A stretch of 64,000 nucleotides of DNA from Nemertoderma westbladi (lineage: Eukaryota > Animalia > Xenacoelomorpha): contig JAUCBJ010009100.1 in the NCBI GenBank assembly GCA_032718475.1, forward strand, positions 62,001-126,000, read 5' to 3'. Shown here piece by piece: positions 14,431-60,401 of the stretch. The number at the start of each line of letters is the position of its first letter. Within the stretch, counting starts at the first letter, position 1. The position numbers and the translations under genes were made by a program. The notes below the pieces were generated by a model. The model was not told the DNA's origin. It made no database searches and saw nothing but the letters and a program-made list of their open reading frames with translations.

Positions 14431-15168
14431 ATCTATGAGTTAGATATAGTAAATCTATGAGTTAGATATAGTAAATCTATGAGTTAGATATAGTAAATCT
14501 ATTAGTTAGATATAGTAAATCTATTAGTTAGATATGGTAAATCTATGAGTTAGATATAGTAAATCTAAGAGTTAGATATAGTAAATCTATGAGTTAGATA
14601 TAGTAAATCTAAGAGTTAGATATAGTAAATCTATGAGTTTGATATAGTAAATCTATGAGTTAGATATAGTAAATCTATGAGTTAGATATAGTAAATCTCT
14701 TAGTTAGATATAGTAAATCTATGAGTTAGATATAGTAAATCTAAGAGTTAGATATAGTAAATATATTAGTTAGATATAGTAAATCTATTAGTTAGATATG
14801 GTAAATCTATTAGTTAGATATGGTAAATCTATGAGTTAGATATAGTAAATCTATTAGTTAGATATAGCAAATCTATGAGTTAGATATAGTAAATCTATTA
14901 GTTAGATATGGTAAATCTATGAGTTAGATATAGTAAATCTACGAGTTAGATATAGTAAATCTATGAGTTAGATATAGTAAATCTATTAGTTAGATAGAGT
15001 AAATCTATTAGTTACATATAGTAAATCTAAGAGTTAGATATAGTAAATCTATTAGTTAGATATAGTAAATCTATTAGTTAGATATGGTAAATCTATGAGT
15101 TAGATATAGTAAATCTAAGAGTTAGATATAGTAAATCTATGAGTTAGATATAGTAAATCTATGAGTTA

Positions 15169-16993
15169 TGTTCGCGGTATTTCAACTTTCCATAACGCGA
15201 GTTGAATATTTTTGTATTTTATTTAAAATTGATTATTCCGATATTACTACTGGGTGCGGGACCATGGGTTTTGGGCACACTCAATAAACTGGGGGCGATT
15301 TATGGGCGAACTTTGGGGCGAATTACAGGGTACGGGAATAATTTCATAGTTATAAGGGCCAGGGGGGGATGGAAAATGCAAGCAGTATTCAGGTTAGCCT
15401 GAGTACTATTAGGCCCTGGCCAACTTCCTGCTGCCTGTAGGGGTGGATTTGGTAATGCGCCAGGCCTAAAGGACAAGGACTGCCCTTAGCGGTCCCTGGC
15501 CAACAGCAGTTATTACGAGACTGAAAGGAACTCGGAACGCTGACTGCTTGTGTCAGGGATTTGCGACGGGAAACGACGGCCCCTTAGTAGCCAAGCCGTT
15601 CTGGTTCTCGATGATCGAACCCTTCGGGGTTCGTGAGGGGTGGAGCGGACACGCGAACGGGTGGCCAACTAACGACTGCCCCCTGAGCTAAGCCGTACTG
15701 GTTCTCGATGACCGATCCCTTCGGGGTTCGCGAGGGGTGGGACGGACATGCGAAAGGGCTGGCCACAGGACGGGTTTGACGAGGACTGCCCTTAGCGGTC
15801 TCTGGTCAACGGCAGCTACTATGAGACTGAAAAGAACTCGGAACGCTGACTGCTTGTACCGGGATCTGCGACGGGAACCGACGACAGACCCCTTAGCCAA
15901 GCCGTACTGGTTCTCGATGATCGTTCCCTTCGGGGTTCGTGAGGGGTGGAACGGACACGCGATGGGGTCGAAAGACAAAGGACTAGACTCGACTAGACTC
16001 TACTGGCCTACCGACTGTTCGGAGCAGTTTCTCGGCTGCCGAAGCGACTACGAGCCTGAAAGGGACTCGGAAAGCCTAGGTGGTTGGGTTTCTGTGATGA
16101 ACCGACGGACCCCTAGCCAAGCCGTTCTGGTTCTCGATGATCGAACCCTTCGGGGTTCGTGAGGGGTGGAACGGACACGTGAACGGGTCCACCGACACGA
16201 CAGACTCCTAGCCAAGCCGTACTGGTTCTCGATGACCGATCCCTTCGGGGTTCGAGAGGGGTGGTACGGATACGCGACAGAGTCTACCGACTGGACCGAC
16301 CCTTAGCCAAGCCGTGCTGGTTCTCGATGATCGTTCCCTTCGGGGTTCGTGAGGGGTGGAACGGACACGCGACAGGGTCGACCGACACCGACACTACGGC
16401 ACTAAGACTAGGACCGAGGGAAAATCTGGGGAACATTAGGTAGGCTAAAATCTGAGCGAACAGTGGGTAATTAAATAATATACTGTAGGGATTTATATTA
16501 TCGTGTATAATTATTGTGAATATTTGGTGTATATTGATTTGGGGAAGCCCAAAATTATTCTTAATCAAGGTTCAACAGAGTTCAGTTACATTAAAGAGTA
16601 TATCCAACTAATGCAGCTTTTTCTCAACCGCAACCCTGCATCTCAGAAATCATTCCTTCTCCAAAATCAATATCCGGTGACTGGCCGGGGCTCAGTGGTC
16701 TGTAAAGTCACGTCTCCAGCATCGGCGTTTTTCCCCCCTGGTGTTGGGATAACGGCAACAAAATTAAGAATAATTCACGTGGTTAATTTTGACAGGGTGT
16801 CAAAATTAAGAATAATTAATGCGGTTAATTTTGACAGGGTGTCAAAATTAAGGATAATTACGGTCAACTTCAACTGGTGGAAGTTGAGAATCCTTCAATA
16901 CTCTTCAAAAACTCTCTACGTGCTTGCCAGCACCCACTACGAGGAAACTCTGGTATTTGAGTTGAGACGAAGTCATGGTTTAATTAATCAACA
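15169..16993 (+). repeat. 5' LTR of copy 1 (type A); right end either 16760 or 16993 (both end ...AACA)
   Basis: Homologous to 28214-29778 up to ~16660. TGTT...AACA termini. A PBS-like site at 17012 favours 16993. Confidence 0.75.
15482..16377 (+). ncRNA. Array of structured RNA modules in LTR-A: 6 k-turn/UUCG hairpins (A) and 3 loop-E/GAAA hairpins (B/C), order B A A B A C A A A
   Basis: Repeated AAGCCGTACTGGTTCTCGATGA(T/C)CG..CCCTTCGGGGTTCG(T/C)GAGGGGTGG separated by variable CGAC-rich linkers and TACGAG.CTGAAA.G.ACTCGGAA hairpins. RNA function is inferred from folding by eye. Confidence 0.6.
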
Positions 16994-17011
16994 AACTCGA
17001 TTTAACCAACT

Positions 17012-17023
17012 CGTAGTCGGCAG
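17012..17023 (+). promoter_or_regulatory. Primer-binding-site-like motif (tRNA-Ser)
   Basis: CGTAGTCGGCAG is complementary to the 3' end of metazoan tRNA-Ser(AGA) (...CTGCCGACTACG) as recalled, but lacks the TGG. Conserved in copy 2 at 60432-60443. Confidence 0.5.
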
Positions 17024-17053
17024 ATCACATATTTGGAGAGTTGTTAACAGGGA

Positions 17054-17245
17054 ATGGAAGTATCGATCACACCCATTGATATAATCCAAGTTGAGCCAGG
17101 AATCTGGCACGTCGAAGTTGAAGTACAAGGAACGAACGTCGGACGATTCAGGATTACCGTTCGGGTGGTCCAAGCTGAGTACAATACCTACGAGGAACTG
17201 TTTTATGACATCGCGTATCTAGCTATCGACGAGGCGTTACAATGA
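17054..17245 (+). CDS. 63-aa upstream ORF of unknown function, overlapping the gag start (ATGA)
   Basis: Open in both copies with one amino-acid difference. Its TGA overlaps the gag ATG. Confidence 0.5.
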   Translation: MEVSITPIDIIQVEPGIWHVEVEVQGTNVGRFRITVRVVQAEYNTYEELFYDIAYLAIDEALQ

Positions 17246-20200
17246 CGACAAATAACGTATCCGATACCGACGAGATGGATCACCACACAGACTCGGAAGC
17301 CGACGAGATACCAAACGTCAAGAACATGACCCGTCGGCTAGGGGCTCTCAAAGGCGGAGTAACCCGAGCGTATCAACGGATGGAGAAACAACTCAAGGGA
17401 GTCAAAACCCCCCTCAATGAGGTACAAACTCAGCTTCAAAATATCCGAAATATCCTACAGCGGTACGAAAGAATGATACAGGCGTACCAAGAGCTCGTTC
17501 CCTCCACCGATCAGGAAAACTACCCCAAGTTAGAAGAACATGTTGTACACCTAGAGGGGTTCCGCAAACAACACCGGAGGACCCTCAGCCTTGTGAGAGG
17601 CTATGAGGAACAGTACTACAAGAGGGCTGAAAGAACAGACGCGGAATCAGTACGATCCTCCAGCATCAGGACAGCAGTACATTGAAAGAGAACGGGGTCC
17701 GCTAGAAATCAGCACTCCAGCGCTAGGAGCGAGAGATCCGGCTCAGCGCATAGCTCTCAAGGGGGTCAGCCACTCCGAGACCAACTGCGAGAACGGAAGG
17801 CATTAGCCCTCAAAGCTCGGATGGAAGATGAGTATATTCAACTGCAAGCCGAGCAAGATGTATTAGCCGCCGAAACACAAAAGCGAGAGGCCGAACAAGA
17901 GGTCGAACGACGGGTCGAACAACGCAGACAGGAGGTCAGACAGGAGATCGAACAACGTGAACAAGAGGCCAAACGAGAGATCGAACAACGTGAACAAGAG
18001 GCCAAACGAGAGATCGAACAACGTGAACAAGAGGCCAAACAAGAGATCGAACAACGTGAACGAGAGGCCAAACAAGAGATCGAACAACGTAAATGGGAAG
18101 CAGAAATGCGTAAACAACACGCCGAGGCCCAAGCGATTCTCACTCACAAAAAGAATGCAGATATTGCGAAACTTTCGGAATACGAAGCCGCGCTTATAGA
18201 ACGAGATATTCAACTATACGAGGACTGGGAAAGGGATATAGATCAGGAATATGAACCAATCCCGGTACCGGAATTAGAAAAGTCATTCATACCGACAGCG
18301 GCGAAACTTCCGAAACCCGAGATCCCGCCTACCAAACAGTCTACGCTATCGGCACAAGCACCGGTGTTCCATCCCCCACCGGCTACGCTAAAGAATGAGG
18401 AACCTTATATCCCATCCAACACCACGACAGCGAGTGTACCCAAGTACGAGCCTGAAAGGGACTCGGAACGGGACGCCACTCCCCAATCTAACAACCCATT
18501 TACATCCACACCACAAACTCGTAGCCGCGTCATTATTAAAACTCCACCTATTATTGATCCATCAAGTATGGGAGTGAGTGCCAATAACTATAACCCTCAG
18601 AGTCACTCTAGTTCAGACGACGTCAGCATCATCCGGGCGTTGGAGAACCGCCTTGCCATGCCTAAGATGGAGATTCGCACCTTCGAAGGAGATCCCGTCG
18701 ATTACCTCAGATTCAAGAAACGGTTCTTTGCGCAGATCGGATCAACGGACATAGCCGACGCACAGAAATTGGTATATTTATCGCAATACCTGGGTGACAA
18801 ACCACGCAGAATTATTGCATGTTTTGAAGGAGGTTCTCATGAGGCATACTATGACGCATGGAAAACTCTAGATAAAAGATACGGAAATACCGGAACTATA
18901 ATTAATAAAACTCTAGAGAGACTGATACAGGACGTGGGATCACTAGGGGACCCACAGAACATACAGGAATTCTCCGACTCTATGAAGGATGCCTACTATA
19001 CTCTGAAACCCTTAAATAAGGAGGACCAGGTGAACAACATTCTAAACCTCCGACAGATCGCCCGGAAGTTCCCCGGATGGCTACAAAGTAAGTGGGCTTA
19101 TAAATGTGTAGATCTCCGGCGCAGACATCCAGATCGAGATCCTAGCTTCCTTGAAATGTCGGCATTCCTGGACGATATCTCCGAAGCCATGAATGACTCG
19201 ATGTTTTCAAAACAAAGTCTCGCAAAGTTGGACGGAATAGAAAGCAACTCCAGGAGTAAGATAACCCCTCCGAAACCGAGATTCCGCCCCCCACCGGTGA
19301 GTACGATGGCCATCACCATGGCTGAGGATTCCGACGACGAAGACTACGAGGAACCGACATCCGCCGAGGAATGGGCATGTTATCTCGCGAGTTGGGCACC
19401 CGAAAGGGAAGGCATCACAAATTCCCTGCTCTGTCTCTTCTGTGGGGAGAAACATAAAGTGGAATTCTGCAGAAAGTTTCAGTTCGCCGAACTCGTCCCA
19501 CGCTTCGAGGCGATAATGAAACACCGACGATGCTTCCGGTGTCTTGGAACAGGTCACTATGTTCGGGAGTGCGACCAAAGATCATGCTGTGCTGTCTGTA
19601 ACGACCAACGCCATCACACGCTCCTCCACATCCCCGCGAACTTCGATTTTACTACCCTCCCCTTTCGGATCGAAGCCAGGCGAAGAGGAGAAACAAACCA
19701 CGTCTTCAAAGGAACCCGGACAACCCAACGGAGAGAAACCAACCCGTTTAAAATCTCCACCGATACACCACAAGTAACAAATATTTTGGCCACGATTAAT
19801 CTTATAAATCGCCGCTACATGGTCTTCGCAAAGGTAATCCCAGTAAGGATCCAAGGAGTCGGCAAATCTTTGACGACACTCGCGTTCCTCGATAACGGGT
19901 CCGACGGAACCATCATCGACCGGGATTTCCTCGAGCAACTCGGCCTAGAATATGAACCTTGTAAACGGCCCATACAAACCATCACCGATAACCGAGAGGT
20001 AGAATCTGGGGAGGTGCAACTCCAAATGGAAGGAGTAATGAAGGGCTACGAGACGGACAAGCTAACCATCAAGAACGCCTTGGTACACACAGACCTCCGA
20101 GTGCGGTTCCGACAATCAGCCGAGTACGCCCCCCTCATACAATTGGACCGAGACGATGTAGATCTGAGGTGTCGCAGTTGGACGTAAACCGCATCACCCT

Positions 20201-23200
20201 ACTGATTGGACTTGATACACCGGAATTACACAAACCTACCGGAGATGTCGCCCGATCCATAAAGAAAGATGACGGCTTTTACGCTGAACGAACCATAATG
20301 GGATGGACCCTCTGCGGCATCAAGGAAGAAACTACTGACACCTATACATATCTTCCTAAATGTCAGATTAAAGAAAATGTAACATCCGTGGGATATTGCT
20401 CAGCTACAGACCTCGATGAGGATTTATTTCTCGAGACCGAAAAAACCCAGCGAGAGATGACTAAATACTTTAATCTAGAGACCCAAGAGTTCGCTGAAAA
20501 GGACGAAAACCCGTCCGAGGAAGATCGATATTGTATGGATGTTCTGGACCAGGCCACGTTCAACGACGGACACTGGTGTTCACCCATGTTATGGAAGGAC
20601 CCGAATAAACCAATGGCAAACAACGCTAACATGGCCCTTAGGCGACTTAAGGGCATTCTCCGCCGGCTGAATGACCAACCCGAGATAAAGGAGAAATATA
20701 ATACCGTAATCCAAGGATATCTCGACGATGGATTAGCAGAAATGGTACCCCGGAACGAACTGCAAGGAGGCAAAAGAACATATTATCTTCCAACCCACTA
20801 CGTGGTAGAAGCACGGAAGGGCGGGAAAATCCGAGTAGTTAATGATGCCGCTGCTATGTATCAAGGCGAATCCCTGAATAGTCAGCTTTATACGGGACCC
20901 AACATATATAGTACACTTATTGGCGTATTGATCAGGTTCAGAGAAAACCGGATAGCATTCACCTGCGACATCAAAGCCATGTTTCATCAGGTTTGTACGC
21001 TACCAAGAGACTCAGATTGTCTACGAATCCTATGGACGGATGAAACACTAACTCAACATGAGATTAGTCAACTTACAATAAAGGACGTAGACGTAATGCG
21101 TATGGTCGTCAGGATTTTCGGCGCTAAGGACTCGCCAGTAGCATGTAGTGACATGCTGAAAAGAATGGCAACTATGTGTGAAAACGAGTTCCCCCCAACC
21201 GTCATAGAAACCATCCGACGATGCTTCTACGTGGACGACGGATGCGCCGGTGCGGATAATGTGGATGAGGCATATCGGCTAGCAATGGGGATGGTAGAAT
21301 GTTTAAAGAAAGGAGGCTTCCCGCTCATGAAGTTCAGGTCCCACGACAAGAAACTTATGGAAAAGTTTCCGGAGGACATTCGACTGGACAACAACAAAAT
21401 GTACTCGTAGGATGTGGAACACCGTGTACTCGGGATTGAATGGGACATAGAATCAGACGAATTTATTTTCAAATATAAACCCCTACCCAAGCCCATGACG
21501 AAAAGGGGATGTTTGTCGATAAAAAGCGCCATCTTCGACCCACTAAATTTCATATCTCCAGTAACCTTGGCCAGGATGAATCTGATTAAGGAAATGTGGT
21601 TAGAAGGACTGGGATGGGACGAAGAACTCCCCCCACACCTCAGCGTCAAATGGAGAAAATGGACGGAGCAGCTCGAACACCTACATCTCATGCGGATCCC
21701 TCGACCGTTCTTCCTCGATAAACTACCCACCGATATCTTCCAGCTCCATACCTTTTCGGATGCTTCGAATACCGGAATCGACATAGTCACCTTCTTACGG
21801 AGACTAAGTAACGATGGAAACGGCGACACAAGCTTCTTATTCTCCAAAGCCAAGACAGTATCTGGGGAATTCGTAGCAACGATTCCGAGACTCGAGCTAC
21901 AAGCTGCAGTCTGGGCAGTAAGACAGAATCGCATGGTCATGCGGAACCTACGGATCCCCATCGAATCTCAACACTTCTGGGTCAATTCGAGTATAGTTCT
22001 CTATTATCTCCACTCTCCATCACGGCGTCACACCACGTTTGTTGCAAACCGAGCCACAGAGATTAAACAGTGCACCGGCCGAGAACAGTGGCACCACGTG
22101 AACGGGAAGGAAAACCCAGCGGACTTATCAAGCCGAGGCGCCACCCCAAAACAACTCGGTAAAAGCAAACTCTGGCTTACAGGTCCGGAATTCCTACAGC
22201 AGCCACAATTAACATGGAGTACCCGATTCGACCCCGAACTCGATAGCGGAAAATACTCCGAGGACGATAAAGAGATCCGTAAAGTCCATCGAAGCAACGC
22301 GGTGGAAATTTATAGTTGTCTGACTGAGCCTGCAAAGGACTCGGGCAGGCACTATAATGTCGCGACGATCACTCAACCAGCGGCGTCTTTACATCGGTTG
22401 ATCGAGCGAACTTCATCGATGAGACGGCTCGTCCACCACGTTATAACCCTTCATAACTTCCTACAGTGGAAAAACAACAAACCGATAGTTCAACGGAATA
22501 TACAAGAACTCATTATCGCGGAGAAGTGTATCGTTAGATATGTCCAGAGAGAAAGTTTCCCCGATGAGTGGGAACAACTTAGCGCGGGCAAAACATTGAA
22601 ACCGGACAGCCCAGTCTACCAACTGAGACCAATGATGGGAGAGGACGGACTGATCCGACTGAATACCCGGATGGCAAACGCCCCGGTCGAATACGAGGTT
22701 AAATACCCGGCGCTTCTGCCCGGAACGTCGACACTAGCTAAGCTATTAATTTTACAATGTCACGAGGACAACCATCACGCAGGACAGAATTGGATTATAG
22801 CTAATATAAGACAAAGATACTGGATCACCCACATCCAGCCACTGATCCGGAAAGTGTTGAAACGTTGCTTTACCTGCAGACGTTATCTAGCGCCACCAAT
22901 CACCCAAAAGATGGCCGACTTACCAGCCACCCGTCTACAAGCAGATTCCCCACCGTTCTACGTCACCGGAGTGGACTGTTTCGGACCGTTTATGGTCATC
23001 GAACGACGATCCAACATCAAATGCTGGGGAGCCATCTTCACCTGCCTAAGGTCTAGGGCAATCTACCTAGATATCGTGGTAAATCTGACGCAACACGCAT
23101 TCATCAACGCTCTGCGTCGGTTCGTGGCGAACAACGGGACATGTCGTCACATGTACTACGATAACGGTACAAACTTTGTGGGAGGAGAAAGAGAACTTAG

Positions 23201-24185
23201 GGAGGCGATCGAGGGATGGTTTACCGACAACACCGCATCCCAAGTCTGGAAGGAACACCAGATACAGTGGCACTTCCAGACCCCCTTAGCACCCCATACG
23301 AGCGGGGTATGGGAGAAACTGATCGACCTAGTGAAACGATCCATGCGCATCGCTCTAGGAGACACCCGGGTAACCCATGACACCCTCCGCACAACATTCT
23401 GCAAGATCACGGCTACCCTTAACAACCGGCCCATTGTCCCTATCCGCGACGACCCCACAGACCTGGAGCCCCTCACTCCTAACCACCTACTGGGGAGACC
23501 CAAAACCCACGTTCTCCCAGAGACCATGTTCCCGGATCCCAACGAGATCGCGAGACATACAAATTGGAAGAAGGTCCAAGCGTTGGCAGCGCATTGGTGG
23601 AGAATCTGGGCCCAGGAGTACCTCATAACCCTCCGGACCAGGAGGAAATGGAACAACACCTACCGGAACGTCGCAGTTGGCGACATGGTACTAGTAAAAG
23701 AAGATCTCAAAGACCGTTTTCACTGGCCTGTGGCGCGGGTCGTGACCATACACCCAAGCAAAGACGGACTTGCGAGGACTGTGACGATACGAACGGCAAA
23801 GGGCCACTACCAACGCCCTATCCAGAAGCTGTGCCTTCTCGAAGGCAATGACAGTGGTGACTCTACGAGAGGTGATAAGTTCCCTACTCAAGATCCTGCT
23901 GCGGACATTGGTGACAATTATAAAAAGGGCCACTACCAACGCCCTATCCAGAGGCTGTGCCTTCTCGAAGGCAATGACAGTGGTGACTCTACGAGAGGTG
24001 ATAAGTTCCCTACTCAAGATCCTGCTGCGGACATTGGTGACAATTATAAAAAGGGCCACTACCAACGCCCTATCCAGAGGCTGTGCCTTCTTGAAGGCAA
24101 TGATAGCGGTGACTCTACGAGAGGTGATAAGTTCCCTACTCAGGATCCTGCTGCGGACATTGGTGACAATGACAAATGCGTTTAA
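17242..24185 (+). pseudogene. gag-pol: BEL/Pao Gag-Pol polyprotein, disrupted by a stop at 17683-5, a 1-bp deletion near 20172 and a stop at 21408-10
   Basis: DUF1759-like gag (MPKMEIRTFEGDP), three Zn knuckles (CLFCGEKH..C, CFRCLGTGH..C, CAVC..HHTLLH), protease LDNGS, RT DIKAMFHQV/YVDD, RNase H FSDAS/TIPRLEL, integrase HHCC, VDCFGP and DNGTNF. Lesions located by comparison with copy 2. Confidence 0.95.
23799..24170 (+). repeat. In-frame 126-bp tandem triplication at the integrase C-terminus
   Basis: KGHYQRPIQ.LCLLEGNDSGDSTRGDKFPTQDPAADIGDN occurs three times; single in copy 2. Confidence 0.95.
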
Positions 24186-25433: not shown

Positions 25434-28033
25434 ATGGACCCAAATCGCCAAATTATCGGCGAATTACGTAACACGATAGATCTACTGGAATATTCGCAAC
25501 CCGGATCCCCTGACTTTGATACCAATTGGAGCACCCTGCTAAATGAGAACGTGCGAGTCGTTAAATTCACCGGGCGAGAGGGACTGGATTCCAAGAATCT
25601 ACAAGCCCTCCGGTTAGCCGATGCTAGTACGAGACTGAAAAGAACTCGGAACGCAAAGGCAACCGGAGGGGACGAGTCGTCGTTTTGGGAAACATTCCGA
25701 CAAAGCGTCTACAAATCCCAATGTTTGATCTACGACAACGAGGGAAACGCGACACCCACCTCGAAAGCGATTATGTTGGCGAGATGTCAAAGTTTCGTCG
25801 ACGACAAGAGTACATACCTCGCCCACTGGGGAAACCTGTCGGAGTGTACGGCGACGCTTCGAGAGGAACGCATATCGATTATCCAGAACCGCGACGACTA
25901 CCAGGATAAGTACGGGGCGAAAGAATATGGTCGATCCTTAGTCGTCGTCCTCGGAACCCTGGACGGTTTGGTACTGGTGTGCCGAATATTCCCGACACCC
26001 AGACAGGAAGTGCAGGCAGCCGGAGCGATCTGGTTGCTACCTCCAGAAATCCAAAAGATCCTCTTCGACTTCGACGTCATTAAAATCGGGTCGGATATCA
26101 AGGCGGACGTCCGGAACGACTACGCGAACGCTCCTCTAGGAAGAAACCGACGAGACGACCTCAACGCCCTTAGCCATTGCGTCGACACCCAAACGCTATT
26201 AGCCTGGTTACGATTCGCCGAGTTCATGCGAGGTTTCCGAGAGGTGAGACCGACGAAATCTGGTATCGGCTACCTCGCTGTGCTGAACGGTGGCATCGAC
26301 TTCAAACCCCAGAAATTTCGGGATTATAATAAATTATATGGTGGATACCCGGAATTAGAAATAAAGAGCGAGAGAGAGGGTAGATGGAAAGACGTTGACC
26401 GGAAGTGGACGATACACCAAAGGTGGGAGAATCCCGATCGACGGAACTATATCTACGTCGTTATGGAGTGCTACACCGTCGCTAAGTTTATCTGTAAGAC
26501 TCTCGATAACATCATCACGGCGGTTCCCCTTTCCTTCATCGACTACAACTGGAACGAGGTTATAAACCACACGTTCAAAGCGGTCGAGAACATTACACCG
26601 GGAGAATCGAAAACGCCCGCCGTTATCGATTCCTGGGACGAGAGCGGACCTTACGACATCCCTACGATTACCGATCTTCTCGGTGTGGAGGAGCCTCTGA
26701 TTTCCTCGGAAGGGGAAGAAATATGGCTACAGGAGGGCTTTCTATTACACACCCCGAAGCGACAACTCGAGCCGGGAGCCGCGTACGGACCGGCCGCCAA
26801 ATGGGTTGCCTCGGCCGAACCGATGACGAGAGCAGGTGCTTACACCCCACTCGGCTCCGGTAGCCCTGCGAGGGAGGTAGCCACTACCTCCGCGTTGAGC
26901 GACTTCGGCGACATATGCCAACGGTTATCCCCGTATCCTTTCCCGTGGGCAAAGACTGGTCGTCGGAGATTCCGAGTACCAGCAACCAACGGACCCGCTC
27001 AGCGATACTGGTCGAGAAGGGTCCCAGCGATGCGCCGACCCCCGACGATCTCCTCGGTATCCCTCCGTCGAAAACCCCGGCACCTCTTCGCCGACCAGCG
27101 GTGGCTACTACACCCTCCGTTCCTCAGGACCCTATGCGACTAACCCGTTGGTACGCCGAGCAAACTGAATGGATCCACCGCCAGAAACGGTCGTCTGAGT
27201 TGAGACCAGCGGGACACAAAGAAGGTTATCGTAGCGAGGACCTACTACGCAAAAGCCTAGCATTCCACGGGCTACCGGCCACCGCGAATATTCAGAAGAG
27301 CGACCGACGACTCGAATATTACGTCGGCATCCCGATTCCGATATTCCCCGGTCGAGAGATGCAATTGGAGGTTTGCGGCAACTGCGGTTCGGAGCAGTGC
27401 CCACGCGGTAAAAGGAATCGGGTTACCGATTCGTGCCTCCAGCTCATCGGGATACTCTATTGCCCACACTGTGCGACATCGGGCCACGACGTTTCCGTCT
27501 GTCCGATCCTATACAACCTCTGCACCACGTGCGGTTTCCGTGGGCATTCCTCTAGCCCCCGCTGCTATATCAAATGTCCCACTAAAGACGTTACCGCTAT
27601 GGGAAATTTGGTTATGTTCGAAACCTATGCGAACAACCACGTGAAGACTAAAGTGAGGAGAAACGCTCGGAATATTGCGCAGGAGATGGCGTGCGGGTAT
27701 TTCTCCTTCCCGGAATGCCTCCCCACGTCGGCCACGCTACCTTTCCATTACGTGGATCTGCTACTGAGTGCCGGATTATTCGGACCTTTCGAAGTCATTA
27801 GACGATTATACTCGTATAAAGAGGAGTTCAGTGACGGAGAGTGGTTCCTAGAGGCACGCAAGTCCGAGTTGGAAAGACGAACCGACATGATCCCGATGCC
27901 ATCGAAAGGAAGAGCCCCCAGGAGACAAGCCGAAGCGTTGCTCACGATGGATGTTGACGCTCCTCTACCAGCCATAGCGATCGATGAGAGTCGACGGGCG
28001 AAGAGACGAAAGGCGTATCAGAGAAAGAAATAG
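25434..28033 (+). pseudogene. Extra ORF3 of copy 1: DEDDy 3'-5' exonuclease-like domain plus CCHC zinc knuckles, frameshifted near 26945
   Basis: Track ORFs 25434-27143 and 26915-28033 join into the protein that is continuous in copy 2. Motifs IYDNE, LPPEIQKILFDFDVIKIGSDIKAD, W..P....Y.Y...E, CPHC...GH....C and CTTC...GH.....C. Confidence 0.8.
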
Positions 28034-28213: not shown

Positions 28214-29778
28214 TGTTCGCGGTATTTCAACTTTTCATAATGCGAGTTGAATATTTTTTGTATTTATTTAAAATTGTTTATTCCGATATTATTACTGGGT
28301 GCGGGACCATGGGTTTTGGGCACATTCAATAAACTGGGGGCGATTTATGGGCGAACTTTGGGGCAACTTACAGGGTACGGGAATAATTTCATAGTTATAA
28401 GGGCCAGGGGTGGGAGGCAAAGTTAAGCAGTATTCAGGTTAGGATTTGGTAATGCGCCAGGACTAAAGGACAAGGACTGCCCTTAGCGGTCCCTGGCCAA
28501 CAGCAGTTATTACGAGACTGAAAAGAACTCGGAACGCTGACTGCTTGTGTCAGGGATTCGCGATGGGAAACGACAGCCCCCTTAGCTAAGCCGTACTGGT
28601 TCTCGATGACCGATCCCTTCGGGGTTCGCGAGGGGTGGGACGGACATGCGAAAGGGTGGCTGACTAACGACTGCCCCCTGAGCTAAGCCGTACTGGTTCT
28701 CGATGACCGATCCCTTCGGGGTTCGCGAGGGGTGGGACGGACATGCGAAAGGGCTGGCCAAGACGGGTTTGACGAGGACTGCCCTTAGCGGTCTCTGGTC
28801 AACGGCAGCTATTACGAGACTGAAAAGAACTCGGAACGCTGACTGCTTGTGTCAGGGATTCGCGACGGGCAATGACAGCCCCCTTACCTAAGCCGTACTG
28901 GTTCTCGATGACCGATCCCTTCGGGGTTCGCGAGGGGTGGGACGGACATGCGAAAGGGCGGCCGACTTACAGAGGAAGGGTTTGACGAGGACTGCCCTTA
29001 GCAGTCTCTGGTCAACAGCAGTTATTACGAGCCTGAAAAGGACATCGGAACGCCGGCTGCTTGTACCAGGGATTTGCGACAGGAACCGACGACAGACCCC
29101 TGAGCTAAGCCGTACTGGTTCTCGATGATCGTTCCCTTTGGGGTTCGTGAGGGGTGGGACGGACATGCGACGGGGTCGAAAGACAAAGGACTGGACGCTA
29201 CTGGCCTACCGACTGTTCGGAGCAGTTTCTCGGCTGCCGAAGCGACTACGAGCCTGAATAAGGACTCGGAAAGCCTAGGTGGTCGGGTCTCTGCGATGAA
29301 CTGACGGACCCTTAGCTAAGCCGTACTGGTTCTCGATGATCGAACCCTTCGGGGTTCGGGAGGGGTGGGACGGATGCGCGAACGGGTCCACCAACACGAC
29401 AGACTCCTAGCCAAGCCGTGCTGGTTCTCGATGATCGATCCCTTCGGGGTTCGGGAGGGGTGGAACGGACACGCGACAGGGTCGACCGACACCGACACTA
29501 CGGCACTAAGACCAGGACTGGGGAACATTAGGTAGGCTAAAATCTGGGGAACATTGGGTAGGCTAAAATCTGAGCGAACAGTGGGTAATTAAATAATATA
29601 CTGTAGGGACTTATATTGTCGTGTATAATTATTGTGAATATTTGGTGTATATTGATTTGGGGAAGCCCAAAATTATTCTCAATCAGGTTTCAACTGTAGG
29701 AAGTTACATTAAAGAGTATATCCAACCAATGCGACTTTTCCTCAACCGCAATCCTGCATTTAAGAAATTCCTCCTTCT
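28214..29778 (+). repeat. 3' LTR of copy 1 (type B), truncated; array at 28479-29482, order B A A B A B A C A A
   Basis: Follows the PPT. Near-identical to the reverse complement of the 5' LTR of copy 2. Breaks at TTCCTCCTTCT|AATTAG. Confidence 0.95.
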
Positions 29779-45764: not shown

Positions 45765-45813
45765 AATCATCAAATGTTATCGTCAAAAATAAATCGTCAA
45801 ATCTCAAATCTTA

Positions 45814-46976
45814 GATCATCGAGAACCAGCACGGCTTGGCTAAGGGTCGGTCCAGTCGGTAGACTCTGTCGCGTATCCGTACCACCCCTCTCGAACCCCG
45901 AAGGGATCGGTCATCGAGAACCAGTACGGCTTGGCTAGGAGTCTGTCGTGTCGGTGGACCCGTTCACGTGTCTGTTCCACCCCTCACGAACCCCGAAGGG
46001 TTCGATCATCGAGAACCAGAACGGCTTGGCTAGGGGTCCGTCGGTTCATCACAGAAACCCAACCACCTAGGCTTTCCGAGTCCCTTTCAGGCTCGTAGTC
46101 ACTTCGGCAGCCGAGAAACTGCTCCGAACAGTCGGTAGGCCAGTAGAGTCTAGTCGAGTCTAGTCCTTTGTCTTTCGACCCCATCGCGTGTCCGTTCCAC
46201 CCCTCACGAACCCCGAAGGGAACGATCATCGAGAACCAGTACGGCTTGGCTAAGGGGTCTGTCGTCGGTTCCCGTCACAGATCCCGGTACAAGCAGTCAG
46301 CGTTCCGAGTTCTTTTCAGTCTCGTAGTAGCTGCCGTTGACCAGAGACCGCTAAGGGCAGTCCTCGTCAAACCCGTCCTGTGGCCAGCCCTTTCGCATGT
46401 CCGTCCCACCCCTCGCGAACCCCGAAGGGATCGGTCATCGAGAACCAGTACGGCTTAGCTCAGGGGGCAGTCGTTAGTTGGCCACCCGTTCGCGTGTCCG
46501 CTCCACCCCTCACGAACCCCGAAGGGTTCGATCATCGAGAACCAGAACGGCTTGGCTACTAAGGGGCCGTCGTTTCCCGTCGCAAATCCCTGACACAAGC
46601 AGTCAGCGTTCCGAGTTCTTTTCAGTCTCGTAATAACTGCTGTTGGCCAGGGACCGCTAAGGGCAGTCCTTGTCCTTTAGGCCTGGCGCATTACCAAATC
46701 CACCCCTACAGGCAGCAGGAAGTTGGCCAGGGCCTAATAGTACTCAGGCTAACCTGAATACTGCTTGCATTTTCCATCCCCCCTGGCCCTTATAACTATG
46801 AAATTATTCCCGTACCCTGTAAGTCGCCCCAAAGTTCGCCCATAAATCGCCCCCAGTTTATTGAGTGTGCCCAAAACCCATGGTCCCGCACCCAGTAGTA
46901 ATATCGGAATAATCAATTTTAAATAAAATACAAAAATATTCAACTCGCGTTATGGAAAGTTGAAATACCGCGAACA
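45814..46976 (-). repeat. 3' LTR of copy 2 (type A), truncated within the last hairpin module
   Basis: Near-identical to the reverse complement of 15169-16332. Confidence 0.95.
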
Positions 46977-47141: not shown

Positions 47142-49703
47142 CTATTTCTTTCTCTGATACGCCTTTCGTCTCTTCGCCCGTCGACTCTCATCGATCGCTA
47201 TGGCTGGTAGAGGAGCGTCAACATCCATCGTGAGTAACGCTTCGGCTTGTCTCCTGGCGGCTCTTCCTTTCGAAGGCATAGGGATCATGTCGGTTCGTCT
47301 TTCCAACTCAGATTTGCGTGCCTCTAGGAACCACTCTCCGTCACAGAACTCCTCTTTATACGAGTATAATCGTCTAATGACTTCAAATGGACCGAATAAT
47401 CCGGCGCTCAGTAGCAGATCCACGTAATGGAAAGGTAGCGTGGCCGACGTGTGGAGGCGTTCCGGGAAGGAGAAATACCCGCACGCCATCTCCTGCGCGA
47501 TATTCCGAGCGTTTCTCCGAACCTTGGTCTTTAAGTGGCTGTTTGCGTATGTTTCAAACATGACCATATTTCCCATAGCGGTAACGTCTTTGGTTGGACA
47601 TTTGATATAGCAGCGGGGGCTAGAGGAATGTCCACGGAAACCGCACGTGGTGCAGAGGTTATATAGGATCGGACAGACGGAAACGTTGTGGCCCGAAGTC
47701 GCGCAGTATGGGCAATAGAGTATCCCGAGGAGCTGGAGGCATGAATCGGTAACCCGATTCCTTCTGCCGCGTGGGCACTGCTCCGAGCCGCAGTTGCCGC
47801 AATCTTCCAATTGCATCTCTCGACCGGGGAATATCGGAATCGGGCAGCCGACGTAGTATTCGAGTCGTCGGTCGCTCTTCGGAATATTCTCGGTGGTCGG
47901 TAGCCCGCGGAATGCTAGGCTTTTGCGTAGTAGGTTCTCGCTCCGATAACCTTCTTTGTGTCCCGCTGGTCTCAACTCGGATGACCGTTTCTGGCGGTGG
48001 ATCCATTCAGTTTGCTCGGCGTACCAACGGGTTAGTCGCATAGGGTCCTGAGGAACGGCGGGTGTAGTAGCCACCGCTGGTCGGCGAAGAGGTGCCGGGG
48101 TTTTAGACGGAGGGATACCGAGGAGATCGTCGGGGGTCGGCGCATCGCTGGGGCCCTCCTCGACCAGTATCGCTGAGCGGGTCCGTTGGTGGCTGGTACT
48201 CGGAATCTCCGACGACCAATCTTCGCCACCCGGGAAAGGATACGGGGATAACCGTTGGCATATGTTGCCGAAGTCGCTCAATGCAGCTGTAGTGGCTACC
48301 TCCCTCGCGGGGCTACCGGAGCCGCGTGGGGTGTAAACGCCTGCTCTCTTCATCGGTTCGGCCGAGGCAACCCGTTTGGCGGCCGGTCCATACGCGGCCT
48401 CCGGCTCGAGTTGTCGCTTCGGGGTGGAGAGTAGAACACCCTCGTTTAGCCATATCTCTTCCCCTTCCGAAGAGATCAGAGGCTCCTCCGCACCGAGAAG
48501 TTCGGTAATCGTAGGGATGTCATAAGGTCCGCTCTCGTCCCAGGAATCGATAACGGCGAGCGTTTTAGTCTCTCCCGGTGCGATGTTCTCGACCGCTTTG
48601 AACGCGTGGTGTATGACCTCGTTCCAGTCGTAGTCGACGAAGGAAAGGGGGACCGCCGTAATAAGGTTATCGAGAGTTCTACAGATAAACTTAGCGACGG
48701 TGTAGCATTCCATAACGACGTAAACGTAGTTCCGTCGATCGGGATTCTCCCATCTTTGGTGTATCGTCCACTTCCGATCAACGTCCTTCCATCGACCCTC
48801 TCGCTCGCTCTTTATTTCTAATCCCGGGTATCCACCGTATATTTTATTATAGTCCCGGAATTTCTGGGGTTTGAAGTCGATACCGCCGTTTAGCACAGCG
48901 AGGTAGCCGATCCCGGATTTCGTCGGTCTCACCTCTTGGAATCCTCGCATGAACTCGGCGAATCGTAACCAGGCTAGTAGCGTTTGAGTGTCGATGCAAT
49001 GGCTAAGGGCGTTGAGGTCGTCTCGTCGGTTTCTTCCTGCAGGGGCGTTCGGGTAGTCGTTCCGGACGTCAGCCTTGATATCCGACCCGATTTTAATGAC
49101 GTCGAAGTCGAAGAGGATCTTTTGGATTTCCGGAGGCAGCAACCAGATCGCTCCGGCTGCCTGCACTTCCTGTCTGGGTGTCGGGAATATTCGGCACACC
49201 AGTACCAAACCGTCCAGGGTTCCGAGGACGACGACTAAGGATCGACCGTATTCTTTCGCCCCGTACTTTTCCTGGTAGTCGTCTCGGTTCTGGATAATCG
49301 ATACGCGTTCCTCTCGAAGCGTCGCCGTACACTCCGACAGGTTTCCCCAGTGGGCGAGGTACGTACTCTTGTTGTCGACGAAACTTTGACATCTCGCCAA
49401 CGTAATCGCTTTCGAGGTGGGCGTCGCGTTTCCCTCGTTGTCGTAGATCAAACATCGGGATCTGTAGACGCTCTGCCAGAACGTTTCCCAAAACGACGAA
49501 TCGTCCCCTCCGGTTGCCTTTGCGTTCCGAGTTCTTTTCAGTCTCGTACTAGCATCGGCTAACTGGAGGGCTCGTAGATTCTTAGAATCCGGTCCCTCTC
49601 GCCCGGTGAATTTAATGACTCGCACGTTCTCATTTAGCAGGGTGCTCCAATTTGTATCAAAGTCAGGGGATCCGGGTTGCGAATATTCCAGTAGATCTAT
49701 CAT
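47142..49703 (-). CDS. ORF3, downstream duplicate (853 aa, lacks the first 13 aa): DEDDy exonuclease-like domain plus zinc knuckles
   Basis: Uninterrupted ORF. IYDNE, KIGSDIKAD and YVVME motifs, CxxC..GH..C knuckles, basic C-terminus RRAKRRKAYQRKK. Confidence 0.85.
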   Translation of the reverse strand: MIDLLEYSQPGSPDFDTNWSTLLNENVRVIKFTGREGPDSKNLRALQLADASTRLKRTRNAKATGGDDSSFWETFWQSVYRSRCLIYDNEGNATPTSKAITLARCQSFVDNKSTYLAHWGNLSECTATLREERVSIIQNRDDYQEKYGAKEYGRSLVVVLGTLDGLVLVCRIFPTPRQEVQAAGAIWLLPPEIQKILFDFDVIKIGSDIKADVRNDYPNAPAGRNRRDDLNALSHCIDTQTLLAWLRFAEFMRGFQEVRPTKSGIGYLAVLNGGIDFKPQKFRDYNKIYGGYPGLEIKSEREGRWKDVDRKWTIHQRWENPDRRNYVYVVMECYTVAKFICRTLDNLITAVPLSFVDYDWNEVIHHAFKAVENIAPGETKTLAVIDSWDESGPYDIPTITELLGAEEPLISSEGEEIWLNEGVLLSTPKRQLEPEAAYGPAAKRVASAEPMKRAGVYTPRGSGSPAREVATTAALSDFGNICQRLSPYPFPGGEDWSSEIPSTSHQRTRSAILVEEGPSDAPTPDDLLGIPPSKTPAPLRRPAVATTPAVPQDPMRLTRWYAEQTEWIHRQKRSSELRPAGHKEGYRSENLLRKSLAFRGLPTTENIPKSDRRLEYYVGCPIPIFPGREMQLEDCGNCGSEQCPRGRRNRVTDSCLQLLGILYCPYCATSGHNVSVCPILYNLCTTCGFRGHSSSPRCYIKCPTKDVTAMGNMVMFETYANSHLKTKVRRNARNIAQEMACGYFSFPERLHTSATLPFHYVDLLLSAGLFGPFEVIRRLYSYKEEFCDGEWFLEARKSELERRTDMIPMPSKGRAARRQAEALLTMDVDAPLPAIAIDESRRAKRRKAYQRKK

Positions 49704-49704
49704 G

Positions 49705-52143
49705 TTACGTAATTCGCCGTGCCTCTAGGAACCACTCTCCATCACAGAACTCCTCTTTATACGAGTATAATCGTCTAATGACTTCAAATGGACCGAATAA
49801 TCCGGCGCTCAGTAGCAGATCCACGTAATGGAAAGGTAGCGTGGCCGACGTGTGGAGGCGTTCCGGGAAGGAGAAATACCCGCACGCCATCTCCTGCGCG
49901 ATATTCCGAGCGTTTCTCCGAACCTTGGTCTTTAAGTGGCTGTTTGCGTATGTTTCAAACATGACCATATTTCCCATAGCGGTAACGTCTTTGGTTGGAC
50001 ATTTGATATAGCAGCGGGGGCTAGAGGAATGTCCACGGAAACCGCACGTGGTGCAGAGGTTATATAGGATCGGACAGACGGAAACGTTGTGGCCCGAAGT
50101 CGCGCAGTATGGGCAATAGAGTATCCCGAGGAGCTGGAGGCATGAATCGGTAACCCGATTCCTTCTGCCGCGTGGGCACTGCTCCGAGCCGCAGTTGCCG
50201 CAATCTTCCAATTGCATCTCTCGACCGGGGAATATCGGAATCGGGCAGCCGACGTAGTATTCGAGTCGTCGGTCGCTCTTCGGAATATTCTCGGTGGTCG
50301 GTAGCCCGCGGAATGCTAGGCTTTTGCGTAGTAGGTTCTCGCTCCGATAACCTTCTTTGTGTCCCGCTGGTCTCAACTCGGATGACCGTTTCTGGCGGTG
50401 GATCCATTCAGTTTGCTCGGCGTACCAACGGGTTAGTCGCATAGGGTCCTGAGGAACGGCGGGTGTAGTAGCCACCGCTGGTCGGCGAAGAGGTGCCGGG
50501 GTTTTAGACGGAGGGATACCGAGGAGATCGTCGGGGGTCAGCGCATCGCTGGGGCCCTCCTCGACCAGTATCGCTGAGCGGGTCCGTTGGTGGCTGGTAC
50601 TCGGAATCTCCGACGACCAATCTTCGCCACCCGGGAAAGGATACGGGGATAACCGTTGGCATATGTTGCCGAAGTCGCTCAATGCAGCTGTAGTGGCTAC
50701 CTCCCTCGCGGGGCTACCGGAGCCGCGTGGGGTGTAAACGCCTGCTCTCTTCATCGGTTCGGCCGAGGCAACCCGTTTGGCGGCCGGTCCATACGCGGCC
50801 TCCGGCTCGAGTTGTCGCTTCGGGGTGGAGAGTAGAACACCCTCGTTTAGCCATATCTCTTCCCCTTCCGAAGAGATCAGAGGCTCCTCCGCACCGAGAA
50901 GTTCGGTAATCGTAGGGATGTCATAAGGTCCGCTCTCGTCCCAGGAATCGATAACGGCGAGCGTTTTAGTCTCTCCCGGTGCGATGTTCTCGACCGCTTT
51001 GAACGCGTGGTGTATGACCTCGTTCCAGTCGTAGTCGACGAAGGAAAGGGGGACCGCCGTAATAAGGTTATCGAGAGTTCTACAGATAAACTTAGCGACG
51101 GTGTAGCATTCCATAACGACGTAAACGTAGTTCCGTCGATCGGGATTCTCCCATCTTTGGTGTATCGTCCACTTCCGATCAACGTCCTTCCATCGACCCT
51201 CTCGCTCGCTCTTTATTTCTAATCCCGGGTATCCACCGTATATTTTATTATAGTCCCGGAATTTCTGGGGTTTGAAGTCGATACCGCCGTTTAGCACAGC
51301 GAGGTAGCCGATCCCGGATTTCGTCGGTCTCACCTCTTGGAATCCTCGCATGAACTCGGCGAATCGTAACCAGGCTAGTAGCGTTTGAGTGTCGATGCAA
51401 TGGCTAAGGGCGTTGAGGTCGTCTCGTCGGTTTCTTCCTGCAGGGGCGTTCGGGTAGTCGTTCCGGACGTCAGCCTTGATATCCGACCCGATTTTAATGA
51501 CGTCGAAGTCGAAGAGGATCTTTTGGATTTCCGGAGGCAGCAACCAGATCGCTCCGGCTGCCTGCACTTCCTGTCTGGGTGTCGGGAATATTCGGCACAC
51601 CAGTACCAAACCGTCCAGGGTTCCGAGGACGACGACTAAGGATCGACCGTATTCTTTCGCCCCGTACTTTTCCTGGTAGTCGTCTCGGTTCTGGATAATC
51701 GATACGCGTTCCTCTCGAAGCGTCGCCGTACACTCCGACAGGTTTCCCCAGTGGGCGAGGTACGTACTCTTGTTGTCGACGAAACTTTGACATCTCGCCA
51801 ACGTAATCGCTTTCGAGGTGGGCGTCGCGTTTCCCTCGTTGTCGTAGATCAAACATCGGGATCTGTAGACGCTCTGCCAGAACGTTTCCCAAAACGACGA
51901 ATCGTCCCCTCCGGTTGCCTTTGCGTTCCGAGTTCTTTTCAGTCTCGTACTAGCATCGGCTAACCGGAGGGCTCGTAGATTCTTAGAATCCGGTCCCTCT
52001 CGCCCGGTGAATTTAATGACTCGCACGTTCTCATTTAGCAGGGTGCTCCAATTTGTATCAAAGTCAGGGGATCCGGGTTGCGAATATTCCAGTAGATCTA
52101 TCATGTTACGTAATTCGCCGATAATTTGGCGATTTGGGTCCAT
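49705..52143 (-). CDS. ORF3, upstream duplicate (812 aa, C-terminally truncated by the duplication junction)
   Basis: Native start MDPNRQ. Nearly identical to 47142-49703 with a 2401-bp period. Confidence 0.85.
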   Translation of the reverse strand: MDPNRQIIGELRNMIDLLEYSQPGSPDFDTNWSTLLNENVRVIKFTGREGPDSKNLRALRLADASTRLKRTRNAKATGGDDSSFWETFWQSVYRSRCLIYDNEGNATPTSKAITLARCQSFVDNKSTYLAHWGNLSECTATLREERVSIIQNRDDYQEKYGAKEYGRSLVVVLGTLDGLVLVCRIFPTPRQEVQAAGAIWLLPPEIQKILFDFDVIKIGSDIKADVRNDYPNAPAGRNRRDDLNALSHCIDTQTLLAWLRFAEFMRGFQEVRPTKSGIGYLAVLNGGIDFKPQKFRDYNKIYGGYPGLEIKSEREGRWKDVDRKWTIHQRWENPDRRNYVYVVMECYTVAKFICRTLDNLITAVPLSFVDYDWNEVIHHAFKAVENIAPGETKTLAVIDSWDESGPYDIPTITELLGAEEPLISSEGEEIWLNEGVLLSTPKRQLEPEAAYGPAAKRVASAEPMKRAGVYTPRGSGSPAREVATTAALSDFGNICQRLSPYPFPGGEDWSSEIPSTSHQRTRSAILVEEGPSDALTPDDLLGIPPSKTPAPLRRPAVATTPAVPQDPMRLTRWYAEQTEWIHRQKRSSELRPAGHKEGYRSENLLRKSLAFRGLPTTENIPKSDRRLEYYVGCPIPIFPGREMQLEDCGNCGSEQCPRGRRNRVTDSCLQLLGILYCPYCATSGHNVSVCPILYNLCTTCGFRGHSSSPRCYIKCPTKDVTAMGNMVMFETYANSHLKTKVRRNARNIAQEMACGYFSFPERLHTSATLPFHYVDLLLSAGLFGPFEVIRRLYSYKEEFCDGEWFLEARRIT

Positions 52144-59300: not shown

Positions 59301-60213
59301 GCCGCTCGGCCTCTCGTCTATGTTGTTCCGCCTCCTGTTCGCGTTGTTCGGCCTCCTGCTTGCGTTGTTCAGCCTGCCGTTCAGCCTCTCGTTCACGTTG
59401 TTCGGCCTCCTGCTTGCGTTGTTCAGCCTGCCGTTCGGCCTCTCGTTCACGTTGTTTAACCTCCTGTTTGCGGTGTTCGGCCTCCTGTTTGCGTTGTTCA
59501 GCCTGCTGTTCGGCCTCTCGTCTATGTTGTTCCGCCTCCTGTTCGCGTTGTTCAGCCTGCCGTTCGGCTGCTTGTTCGGCCTCTCGCTTTTGTGTTTCGG
59601 CGGCTAATACATCTTGCTCGGCTTGCAGTTGAATATCTTCCATCCGAGCTTTTAGGGCTAATGCCTTCCATTCTCGCAGTTGGTCTCGGAGTGGCGGCCC
59701 CCTTGAGAACTGCGCGCTGAGCCGGATATCTCGCTCCTAGCGCTGGAGTGCTGATTTCTAGCGGACCCCATTCTCTTTCGATGTACTGCTGTCCTGATGC
59801 TGGAGGATCGCACTGATTCCGCGTCTGTTCTTTCAGCTCTCTTGTAGTACTGTTCTTCATAGCCTCTCACAAGGCTGAGGGTCCTCCAGTGTTGTTTGCG
59901 GAACCCATCTAGATGTACAACGTGTTCTTCTAACTTGGGGTAGTTTTCTTGATCAGTGGAGGGAATTAGCTCTTGGTACGCCTGTATCATTCTTTCGTAC
60001 CGCTGTAGGATATTTCGGATACTTTGAAGCTGAGTTTGTATCTCGTTGAGGGGGGTTTTGATTCCCTTGAGTTGTTTCTCTATCCGTTGATACTACTCCG
60101 CCTTTGAGAGCCCCTAGCCGACGGGTCATGTTTTTGACGTTTGGTACCTCGTCGGCTTCCGAGTCTGTGTGGTGATCCATTTCGTCGGTATCGGATACGT
60201 TATTGGTCGTCAT
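53389..60213 (-). pseudogene. gag-pol: BEL/Pao Gag-Pol polyprotein, copy 2, with frameshifts near 60093 and 59698 and a stop at 55813-5
   Basis: Same motifs as copy 1 (LDNGS, YVDD, FSDAS, FWVDS, SDNGTNF). Track ORFs 55813-59643 and 53389-55809 are in frame across one TGA. Confidence 0.95.
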
Positions 60214-60401
60214 TGTAGCGCCTCGTCGATAGCTAGATGCGCGATGTCATAAAACAGTTCCTCGTAGGTATTGTACTCAGCTTGGACCACCCGAACGGTA
60301 ATCCTGAATCGTCCGACGTTCGTTCCTTGTACTTCAACTTCGACGTGCCAGATTCCTGGCTCAACTTGGATTATATCAATGGGTGTGATCGATACTTCCA
60401 T
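60210..60401 (-). CDS. 63-aa upstream ORF, copy 2
   Basis: Homologue of 17054-17245 with the same ATGA overlap. Confidence 0.5.
   Translation of the reverse strand: MEVSITPIDIIQVEPGIWHVEVEVQGTNVGRFRITVRVVQAEYNTYEELFYDIAHLAIDEALQ

Follow-up and report, generated by a model that had tools for sequence, protein, structure and literature searches.

A selected motif, predicted to form a hairpin, shared by the LTRs and three genes of a Bel/Pao retrotransposon family, with ORF3 as a candidate reader

A short nucleotide motif recurs throughout a Bel/Pao retrotransposon family, with one copy per gene (gag, pol and ORF3) and three or four per LTR, in a 64,000-nucleotide stretch of the Nemertoderma westbladi genome (contig JAUCBJ010009100.1; hereafter the window). 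Comparison of the copies indicates that the motif is a real, selected feature, and it is predicted to fold into a small hairpin. Probably this hairpin serves on the sense RNA as a docking site for some protein. The reading that we prefer, with a probability of roughly 0.4, is that the multi-copy, selected hairpin would be recognized in a Rev/Rex-like manner by the product of ORF3, a third, extra open reading frame located 3' of pol, whose candidacy is based solely on its domains.

Two copies of one family of Bel/Pao LTR retrotransposons lie in the window in opposite orientation (Table 1), in and near a 22-bp satellite. The order of the Pfam domains, DUF1759, aspartic protease, Peptidase_A17, Integrase_H2C2 and DUF5641, is that of Pao-type elements, and the reverse transcriptase stretch, which has no Pfam match, was recognized by its YVDD motif. 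Gag carries a triple Cys-His box at residues 583, 616 and 635 of the open frame, a feature that passages of PMC554778 give for Pao-like elements. The gag-pol region is interrupted in both copies. All four LTRs start with TG, and both 3' LTRs are cut short, ahead of any terminal CA or target-site duplication. The pol relatives listed are 34-38% identical over most of their length, with one at 42% over half, and for this reason no close family appears to be on record. A locus search for pol relatives in viral contigs returned none, and a tRNA search found no tRNA.

Table 1. Positions, within the window, of the two Bel/Pao copies, their parts and the predicted hairpins
Feature	Position	Strand	Remarks
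Bel/Pao copy 1	15169-29778	+	
5' LTR, copy 1	15169..16660	+	starts TG; 3' end approximate
5' LTR array, copy 1	15470..16400	+	3 motif-tipped hairpins (tips 15514, 15820, 16049) and 6 k-turn-pattern, UUCG-capped hairpins
LTR tip identical to gag motif	16049..16072	+	
gag-pol, copy 1	17209..24185	+	Bel/Pao; interrupted, several open stretches
gag hairpin, copy 1	18432..18481	+	24-nt motif 18445-18468; codons YEPERDSE; AGUA/GAA loop
pol hairpin, copy 1	22310..22357	+	degenerate; core 22325-22343; GCAA loop; bulged A kept; without AGUA/GAA
ORF3, copy 1	25434..28033	+	two frames; DEDDy-fold domain, Cys/His knuckles, Arg/Lys tail
ORF3 hairpin, copy 1	25606..25670	+	motif 25628-25651 from codon 65; other frame; AGUA/GAA; long basal stem
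3' LTR, copy 1	28214..29778	+	
3' LTR array, copy 1	28470..29500	+	4 motif-tipped and 6 k-turn-pattern hairpins
Bel/Pao copy 2	62362 to 45814	-	minus is the sense strand of copy 2
5' LTR array, copy 2	61030..62060	-	4 motif-tipped and 6 k-turn-pattern hairpins
gag-pol, copy 2	53389..60214	-	interrupted
gag hairpin, copy 2	58841..58892	-	
pol hairpin core, copy 2	54978..54997	-	
ORF3, copy 2	47142..52143	-	contains 2.4-kb tandem duplication
ORF3 hairpin, copy 2, duplication unit 1	51912..51963	-	
ORF3 hairpin, copy 2, duplication unit 2	49511..49562	-	
3' LTR array, copy 2	45814..46680	-	cut at 45814; 3 motif-tipped and 5 whole k-turn-pattern hairpins; tip 46074-46097 identical to gag

The original prediction was that a 24-nt word of the LTR is repeated exactly in gag and again in copy 2. 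The identity is exact at those three sites, 16049-16072 (+), 18445-18468 (+) and 58855-58878 (-), as well as at a fourth that had not been listed, 46074-46097 (-), and it lies far beyond chance. When up to three mismatches are allowed, the 24-mer has 14 matches in the window and none in each of 100 shuffles. LTR1 has words of up to 24 nt in common with the internal region; in 200 three-base-block shuffles the maximum was 16. A covariance model built from 12 copies matched 21 places in the window, namely 14 in the LTRs (3, 4, 4 and 3), two in gag, three in ORF3 and, weakly (E 0.026), two in pol, the pol site being outside the training set. A core pattern with up to two mismatches had precisely three matches within the internal region of copy 1, one for each gene, while none of 300 shuffles gave any match. 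The degenerate pol copy, absent from the original prediction, differs from the gag core at two of 18 letters, both compatible with the fold (one within a GNRA loop, the other turning U.G into U-A). Motif patterns run against viral, metagenome and prokaryote contigs gave no match.

The motif is translated as YEPERDSE in gag, as TEPAKDS in pol (the same frame) and as STRLKRTRN in ORF3 (another frame). A protein-level explanation, suggested by the E-P-x-x-D-S that gag has in common with pol in one frame, was rejected because ORF3 is read in a different one; thus, it is the nucleotide sequence that is shared and constrained. Two LTR variants equal coding copies letter for letter, one that of gag (24 nt) and another that of ORF3 (27 nt). 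The exact LTR copy of the gag word holds for two of the four LTRs (two of the 14 LTR copies) but not for the others, where the matching unit has a one-base insertion that produces a five-base loop. Since the variable core positions take few states, exact LTR-gag matches need no pairing function. The term "spacer-like", previously applied to the LTR word, is misleading, as a single motif, in several variants, makes up all 14 LTR tips.

In the predicted core common to the copies, a GNRA-type loop caps two or three pairs, and a bulged A in the 3' arm separates these from four lower pairs. Below the core lies a 5x4 internal loop, which reads AGUA/GAA in gag and ORF3. The fold drawn earlier for gag turned out to be the minimum-energy fold. 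The bulged-G loop (AGUA/GAA) noted with it was recovered between two stems in all five copies of gag and ORF3 taken together, but it occurs in none of the 14 LTR copies, all of which have AUUA or ACUA, and in neither of the two pol copies. Judged from the aligned letters and the predicted fold, what the copies have in common is the upper stem, with its GNRA cap and bulged A, and not the bulged-G loop. The letters of this upper stem are fixed, not merely their pairing, and the GNRA form is kept through a loop change (GAAA, GCAA). The lower, closing stem differs in sequence from one context to another and still pairs, with two of its three pairs changing on both sides among the 12 copies. Its cells are paired in 90.8%, a level reached by none of 500 shuffles and compared with 17-41% in slid controls, a figure that is not to be taken as a probability, as the copies are related and the structure was derived from them.

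Taken as 52 nt, the gag hairpin has a minimum free energy with a z of -2.3 (4 of 200 shuffles as good), and in its 116-nt context a z of -0.8; the values for the pol and ORF3 hairpins are -3.2 and -5.6, respectively. When 287 internal windows were scanned for folding, the pol site took third place, and the gag and ORF3 sites fell outside the top 20. Folded on the opposite strand, the gag and ORF3 hairpins are about equally good, and the pol hairpin and two LTR units clearly favor the sense strand. Searches against Rfam yielded only two chance-level matches in 15100-30000 (E 1.4 and 3.3), and none at the gathering level in 45800-62400.

Variation in gag was examined in public contigs of four runs from three studies, aligned to 18385-18545; runs X1 and X2 represent one sample, possibly the window's own source. 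At a threshold of at least 1%, there are 20 variable places in 18420-18507 and none in 18443-18470. None of the 8 third codon positions in the 24-mer varies, as opposed to 15 of 22 flanking ones (p=0.001), in contigs whose summed depth is higher over the motif and raises the 1% bar there. With a depth-matched bar on the flanks, the figures are 0 of 8 versus 8 of 22 for third positions (p=0.055) and 0 of 24 versus 13 of 64 for all positions (p=0.011); counting the poorly covered edges, the third-position test gives p=0.20. A common flank variant at 18435 converts a basal-stem U.G into C-G, and another common one falls at a bulge, 18438. Between copy 1 and copy 2, none of the 55 third positions of the three coding hairpins differs, where 6.4 would be expected (joint p about 0.001; 0.06-0.24 for each single hairpin), in a test that is not blind, as the hairpin limits were fixed after the identical runs had been seen, and with copies that may be mosaics. 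The identical runs containing the sites rank 4 of 139, 2 of 244 and 3 of 155, and their ends lie near those of the hairpins. Synonymous change at the gag codons, whose reduction had been proposed as a check, was thus lower within the family, both among contigs and between copies. Together with the ORF3 copy in another frame, this bears out the earlier view that the match is better explained by a same-sense, shared RNA site acting in cis than by a guide. Suppressed synonymous change coincides here with compensatory pairs and a predicted fold, as would be expected of the conserved structured RNA in a genomic transcript on which Rev/Rex-type systems act.

Some side observations were made on the same variants. 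Positions 18440 and 18471 of gag may form a compensatory pair, in separate variant records rather than one contig. Among the 40 variants listed out of 128, none lies in 18410-18484, and since other gaps are equally long, this was not counted as evidence. Run X6 covers only 18664-18891, outside the motif.

In the LTRs, the motif hairpins alternate with a second module (module I), which occurs in 23 copies and is capped by UUCG or UUUG. Reading module I as a SECIS element, from its AUGA..GA, was dropped, as it has a short stem, a UUCG cap and no AA loop, contrary to the usual definition of such an element. In all 23 capped hairpins, a 3-nt bulge is followed by tandem G.A/A.G and flanked by paired helices, a sequence pattern that corresponds to a predicted k-turn as defined in the relevant part of PMC8191799. 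The -1 pair is C:G in 21 copies and U:G in two; the 3b:3n position is UU in nine, CC in seven, UG in four, CA in two and CU in one; and 4b:4n is C:G in 22. Two positions of a 4x4 internal loop in these hairpins change together, being U/U or C/C in most copies. Among 16 distinct copies of module I, 85.6% of the cells are paired, far above the slid controls, and covariation shows no excess over shuffles (246 of 500), most pairs never varying.

ORF3 has few relatives in databases. A full HMMER search of 1.84 billion proteins found eight distant ones, all unnamed or "hypothetical", whereas word-based protein searches found none, and no Pfam family matched at E 0.001. A locus search for a pair of ORF3 homologs in viral and metagenome contigs also gave no relative, a result that says little for the metagenomes, where the peptide patterns were poorly chosen. 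The predicted fold of ORF3 is that of a DEDDy domain. In a comparison by VIA-align, its predicted model, which is of low confidence (mean pLDDT 42), resembles Nibbler (Z 9.9, rmsd 3.7, 169 aligned), Egalitarian (8.6) and Exd1 (8.0), and the six chains with Z of at least 8 all belong to the DEDDy superfamily. Foldseek named the same families, weakly (best E 0.03), and an Atlas lead pointed to PF01612 at 0.92. The first acidic motif, D-x-E, is present in four of nine homologous rows and falls in a gap for the window's ORF3 in a loose alignment, for which reason the exonuclease-like domain may be a pseudo-nuclease. According to passages of PMC5408684, inactive DEDD domains such as EXD1 retain RNA binding. 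The best solved match of the Cys/His region is the zinc-knuckle pair of Lin28 (E 1e-4), and a run of Arg and Lys closes the protein at its full length.

ORF3 is favored as the reader because it combines three parts of RNA-binding type and has one site at its own codon 65, and also because known export elements lie in LTRs or coding sequence (sections of PMC4588558 place the HTLV-1 RxRE in the 3' LTR and the MLV PTE across pro-pol) and Cer1 of C. elegans offers a precedent, an LTR retrotransposon that encodes its own export protein, CERV (in sections of PMC10309623). The ORF3 protein would coat the element RNA and steer its export, stability or translation, as happens with Rev/Rex response elements; the LTR array would act as a multivalent loading platform, and the k-turn hairpins might bend the RNA or bind a host protein of the L7Ae family. 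The hairpin at codon 65 could exert feedback on the message of ORF3 itself. The exact LTR-gag identity might then come from the few states that the motif tolerates, aided by copying during reverse transcription. In its fullest form, this proposal has a captured pseudo-exonuclease with Lin28-like knuckles reading one hairpin per gene, and an LTR scaffold of hairpins and about six k-turns recruiting a host L7Ae-family protein, to yield a Rev-like export or anti-silencing coat; we regard this combination as tentative, and would sooner bet against it than for it. Points that count against the preferred explanation are the weaker gag result under the depth-matched bar, the hairpin limits that were not set blind, and a gag hairpin that alone is a modest fold (z -0.8 to -2.3), not strand-biased in energy. 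Gag, with its three Cys-His boxes, is moreover an equally able reader.

Indeed, the main rival, close behind the ORF3 reading and in our judgment rather unlikely, is a dispersed packaging or nucleation signal, in which the zinc knuckles of Gag would read the hairpins, and many copies would promote assembly and RNA selection. The same evidence of sequence and conservation applies to it, the copies are spread along the whole RNA and the triple Cys-His box is at hand, but the ORF3 copy and the LTR array would presumably mark any shorter ORF3 message as well, which suits packaging poorly. Less probable again is an RNA-RNA architecture with tips that have no protein reader, in which GNRA loops would dock into the 4x4 loops of the k-turn hairpins, compacting or dimerizing the RNA. 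Survival of the GNRA form through a loop change agrees with such docking, as do the co-changing positions of the 4x4 loop (a loop that may resemble known tetraloop receptors) and the alternation, in the LTR, of loop-bearing and internal-loop-bearing hairpins with k-turn bends. On the other hand, two LTR copies have a five-base loop, and an upper stem whose letters are fixed, and not just their pairing, fits sequence read-out.

The remaining explanations are all improbable. A DNA-level site, bound by a transcription factor, an insulator or an element protein, repeated as an enhancer in the LTR and kept in the genes, would account for the dyad symmetry and fixed letters of the core, for tandem repeats, which are common in LTRs, and for gag and ORF3 hairpins that fold about equally on both strands; we nevertheless consider it quite improbable, because the closing stems differ in sequence yet pair, the U.G wobble exchanges and the GNRA and UUCG loops favor sense RNA, and the pol and two LTR units have a marked preference for the sense strand. 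Neutral copying, with template switching or gene conversion moving a functionless fragment between LTR and genes, is slightly less credible, and was already disfavored. The letter-for-letter equality of two LTR variants with two coding copies (24 and 27 nt) and the weakness of each single copy-to-copy test (p 0.06-0.24) speak for it, but it hardly explains three separate sites, one per gene and in two frames, each with its own closing stem and none with a synonymous change. A guide-target system, in which LTR repeats and spacers would guide silencing, cleavage or strand transfer at sites in the genes, ranks lower still. One site per gene, one LTR variant matching gag and another ORF3, and matches of small-RNA length (24-27 nt) are consistent with it; however, the matches are same-sense, two hairpins (-26.0 kcal/mol) have the advantage in stability over an arm-swapped duplex (-22.4), all 14 tips are one motif where a CRISPR-like array would have diverse spacers, two of the four LTRs have no exact gag match, and pol has no exact LTR match. 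We give least credence to a processing site, with the GU of AGUA as a splice donor in gag and ORF3 or with the modules as self-cleaving RNA. Both AGUA copies do carry a GU that is absent from the LTR copies, and the modules show motifs typical of folded RNAs, but the pol copy has no such GU, conservation spans the whole hairpin and no Rfam family matches.

RNA selection, export and protection have been little studied in Bel/Pao elements, and one element here contains both a candidate signal and a candidate reader, small enough for testing in the tube. If ORF3 is the reader, the extra exonuclease-like ORFs found in retroelements would gain their first concrete role, a matter left open in passages of PMC5408684 on the DEDDy ORF3s of bdelloid LTR elements. 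A tandem k-turn array in the LTR would link a transposon with the proteins of the snoRNP family. An RNA coat serving Rev-like export or anti-silencing would, if true, have no described counterpart among LTR retrotransposons. Should the reader be Gag instead, the family would be a clear example of packaging signals dispersed along the RNA and embedded in coding sequence. Among the features that are already known are RNA elements that act in cis in retroelements, tandem repeats in the Pao LTR, and DEDDy ORF3s. In the open-access literature, we found neither a hairpin per gene combined with an LTR array mixed with k-turn-pattern hairpins, nor an RNA signal or packaging signal with RNA structure in Bel-Pao, GNRA hairpins linked to gag in LTR retrotransposons, or a tandem k-turn array in an LTR; the matches pairing kink-turns with retrotransposons look unrelated from how they are listed.

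Several known systems resemble parts of this arrangement. Pao is also a Bel/Pao element whose LTR has internal tandem repeats. The gag and ORF3 copies resemble, in the AGUA/GAA that separates their stems, the sarcin-ricin or bulged-G (loop E) motif, as parts of PMC1865062 describe it, from which the present hairpins differ by a longer capping stem, by U or C at the bulged position in the 14 LTR copies and by the lack of the loop in pol. As to kink-turns, one variant of module I shares the key positions C:G, C:C and C:G with the Actinomyces-1 k-turn in the relevant sections of PMC8191799, and differs by its tandem arrangement, as a predicted k-turn, in a retrotransposon LTR. The bdelloid elements Juno, Vesta and Athena/Terminons likewise carry an additional ORF downstream of pol that encodes a DEDDy exonuclease domain (passages of PMC5408684). 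Catalytic residues are intact there, whereas here, in a Bel/Pao element, the first acidic motif is unaligned and a knuckle domain follows; the passages on those ORF3s describe no RNA hairpin system. CERV of Cer1 is similarly a Cys-rich accessory protein of an LTR retrotransposon that acts on genomic RNA, but Cer1 is related to Gypsy/Ty3, CERV has G-like and M domains rather than a DEDDy fold, and the sections of PMC10309623 name no RNA element for it. Finally, the HIV RRE, HTLV-1 RxRE, MLV PTE and MusD MTE (sections of PMC4588558) and the SPRE (PMC8579622) are also structured cis-elements that lie in an LTR or overlap coding sequence and are read by an element or host protein. Each of these is a single large element in one place, whereas the present family has a small predicted hairpin in every gene and an LTR array in which such hairpins are mixed with others of the k-turn pattern.

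The LTRs of copies 1 and 2, two Bel/Pao LTR retrotransposons of one family lying in opposite orientation, are related crosswise between the copies. With gaps left out, the 5' LTR of copy 1 is 99.5% identical to the 3' LTR of copy 2, and the 3' LTR of copy 1 is 98.6% identical to the 5' LTR of copy 2, while the 5' and 3' LTRs of copy 1 share only 88.7% identity with each other. The strand of the satellite, directly within which the Bel/Pao element is inserted, flips as well. Two accounts fit this crosswise pairing: the two inverted elements recombined with each other and so produced an inversion, or the assembly is in error.

Repeats and other features of the elements and of the surrounding DNA
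Feature	Position	Strand	Description
LTR starts	15169, 28214	+
LTR starts	62362, 46976	-
Leader repeat	16759-16860		42-nt unit, each itself palindromic
Gag coiled-coil repeats	17893-18090		Glu/Gln/Arg-rich
Gag coiled-coil repeats	59249-59583	-	Glu/Gln/Arg-rich
Triple repeat at pol end	23798-24170		126-nt, in-frame; copy 1 only
Third repeat, between pol and ORF3	24456-24885	+	about 170 nt, three copies
Third repeat, between pol and ORF3	52687-53114	-	about 170 nt, three copies
ORF3 tandem duplication, copy 2	47317-52120	-	2.4-kb, units 99.9% identical
AT-rich satellite	4590-15168, 35178-40581, 44389-45761		22-bp unit, 66-bp higher order
LINE-type element	29928-34523		endonuclease + RT
LINE-type RT fragment	41799-42863
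50-bp tandem repeat	63542-64000		9 copies, 99% alike, up to window end

The units of the gag coiled-coil repeats are not alike between the two copies. Contigs matching the gag region 18100-19100 numbered 1056 in X1, 574 in X3 and one in X4 (all public sequencing runs), a hint that variant copies are numerous in certain samples but scarce in another.

The ORF3-related proteins P0121-P0129, recovered by HMMER protein search and encoded on contigs of 2-19 kb, matched no Pfam family at E 0.001; they form an unnamed family that combines an exonuclease-like domain with a Cys/His-rich domain, the latter having about 20 invariant columns.

Two units of the third repeat, between pol and ORF3, have predicted folds with z (folding energy scored against shuffled sequence) of -2.8 and -3.4. 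The corresponding value for the leader repeat is -5.0, and its palindromic units may possibly act as a dimerisation signal.
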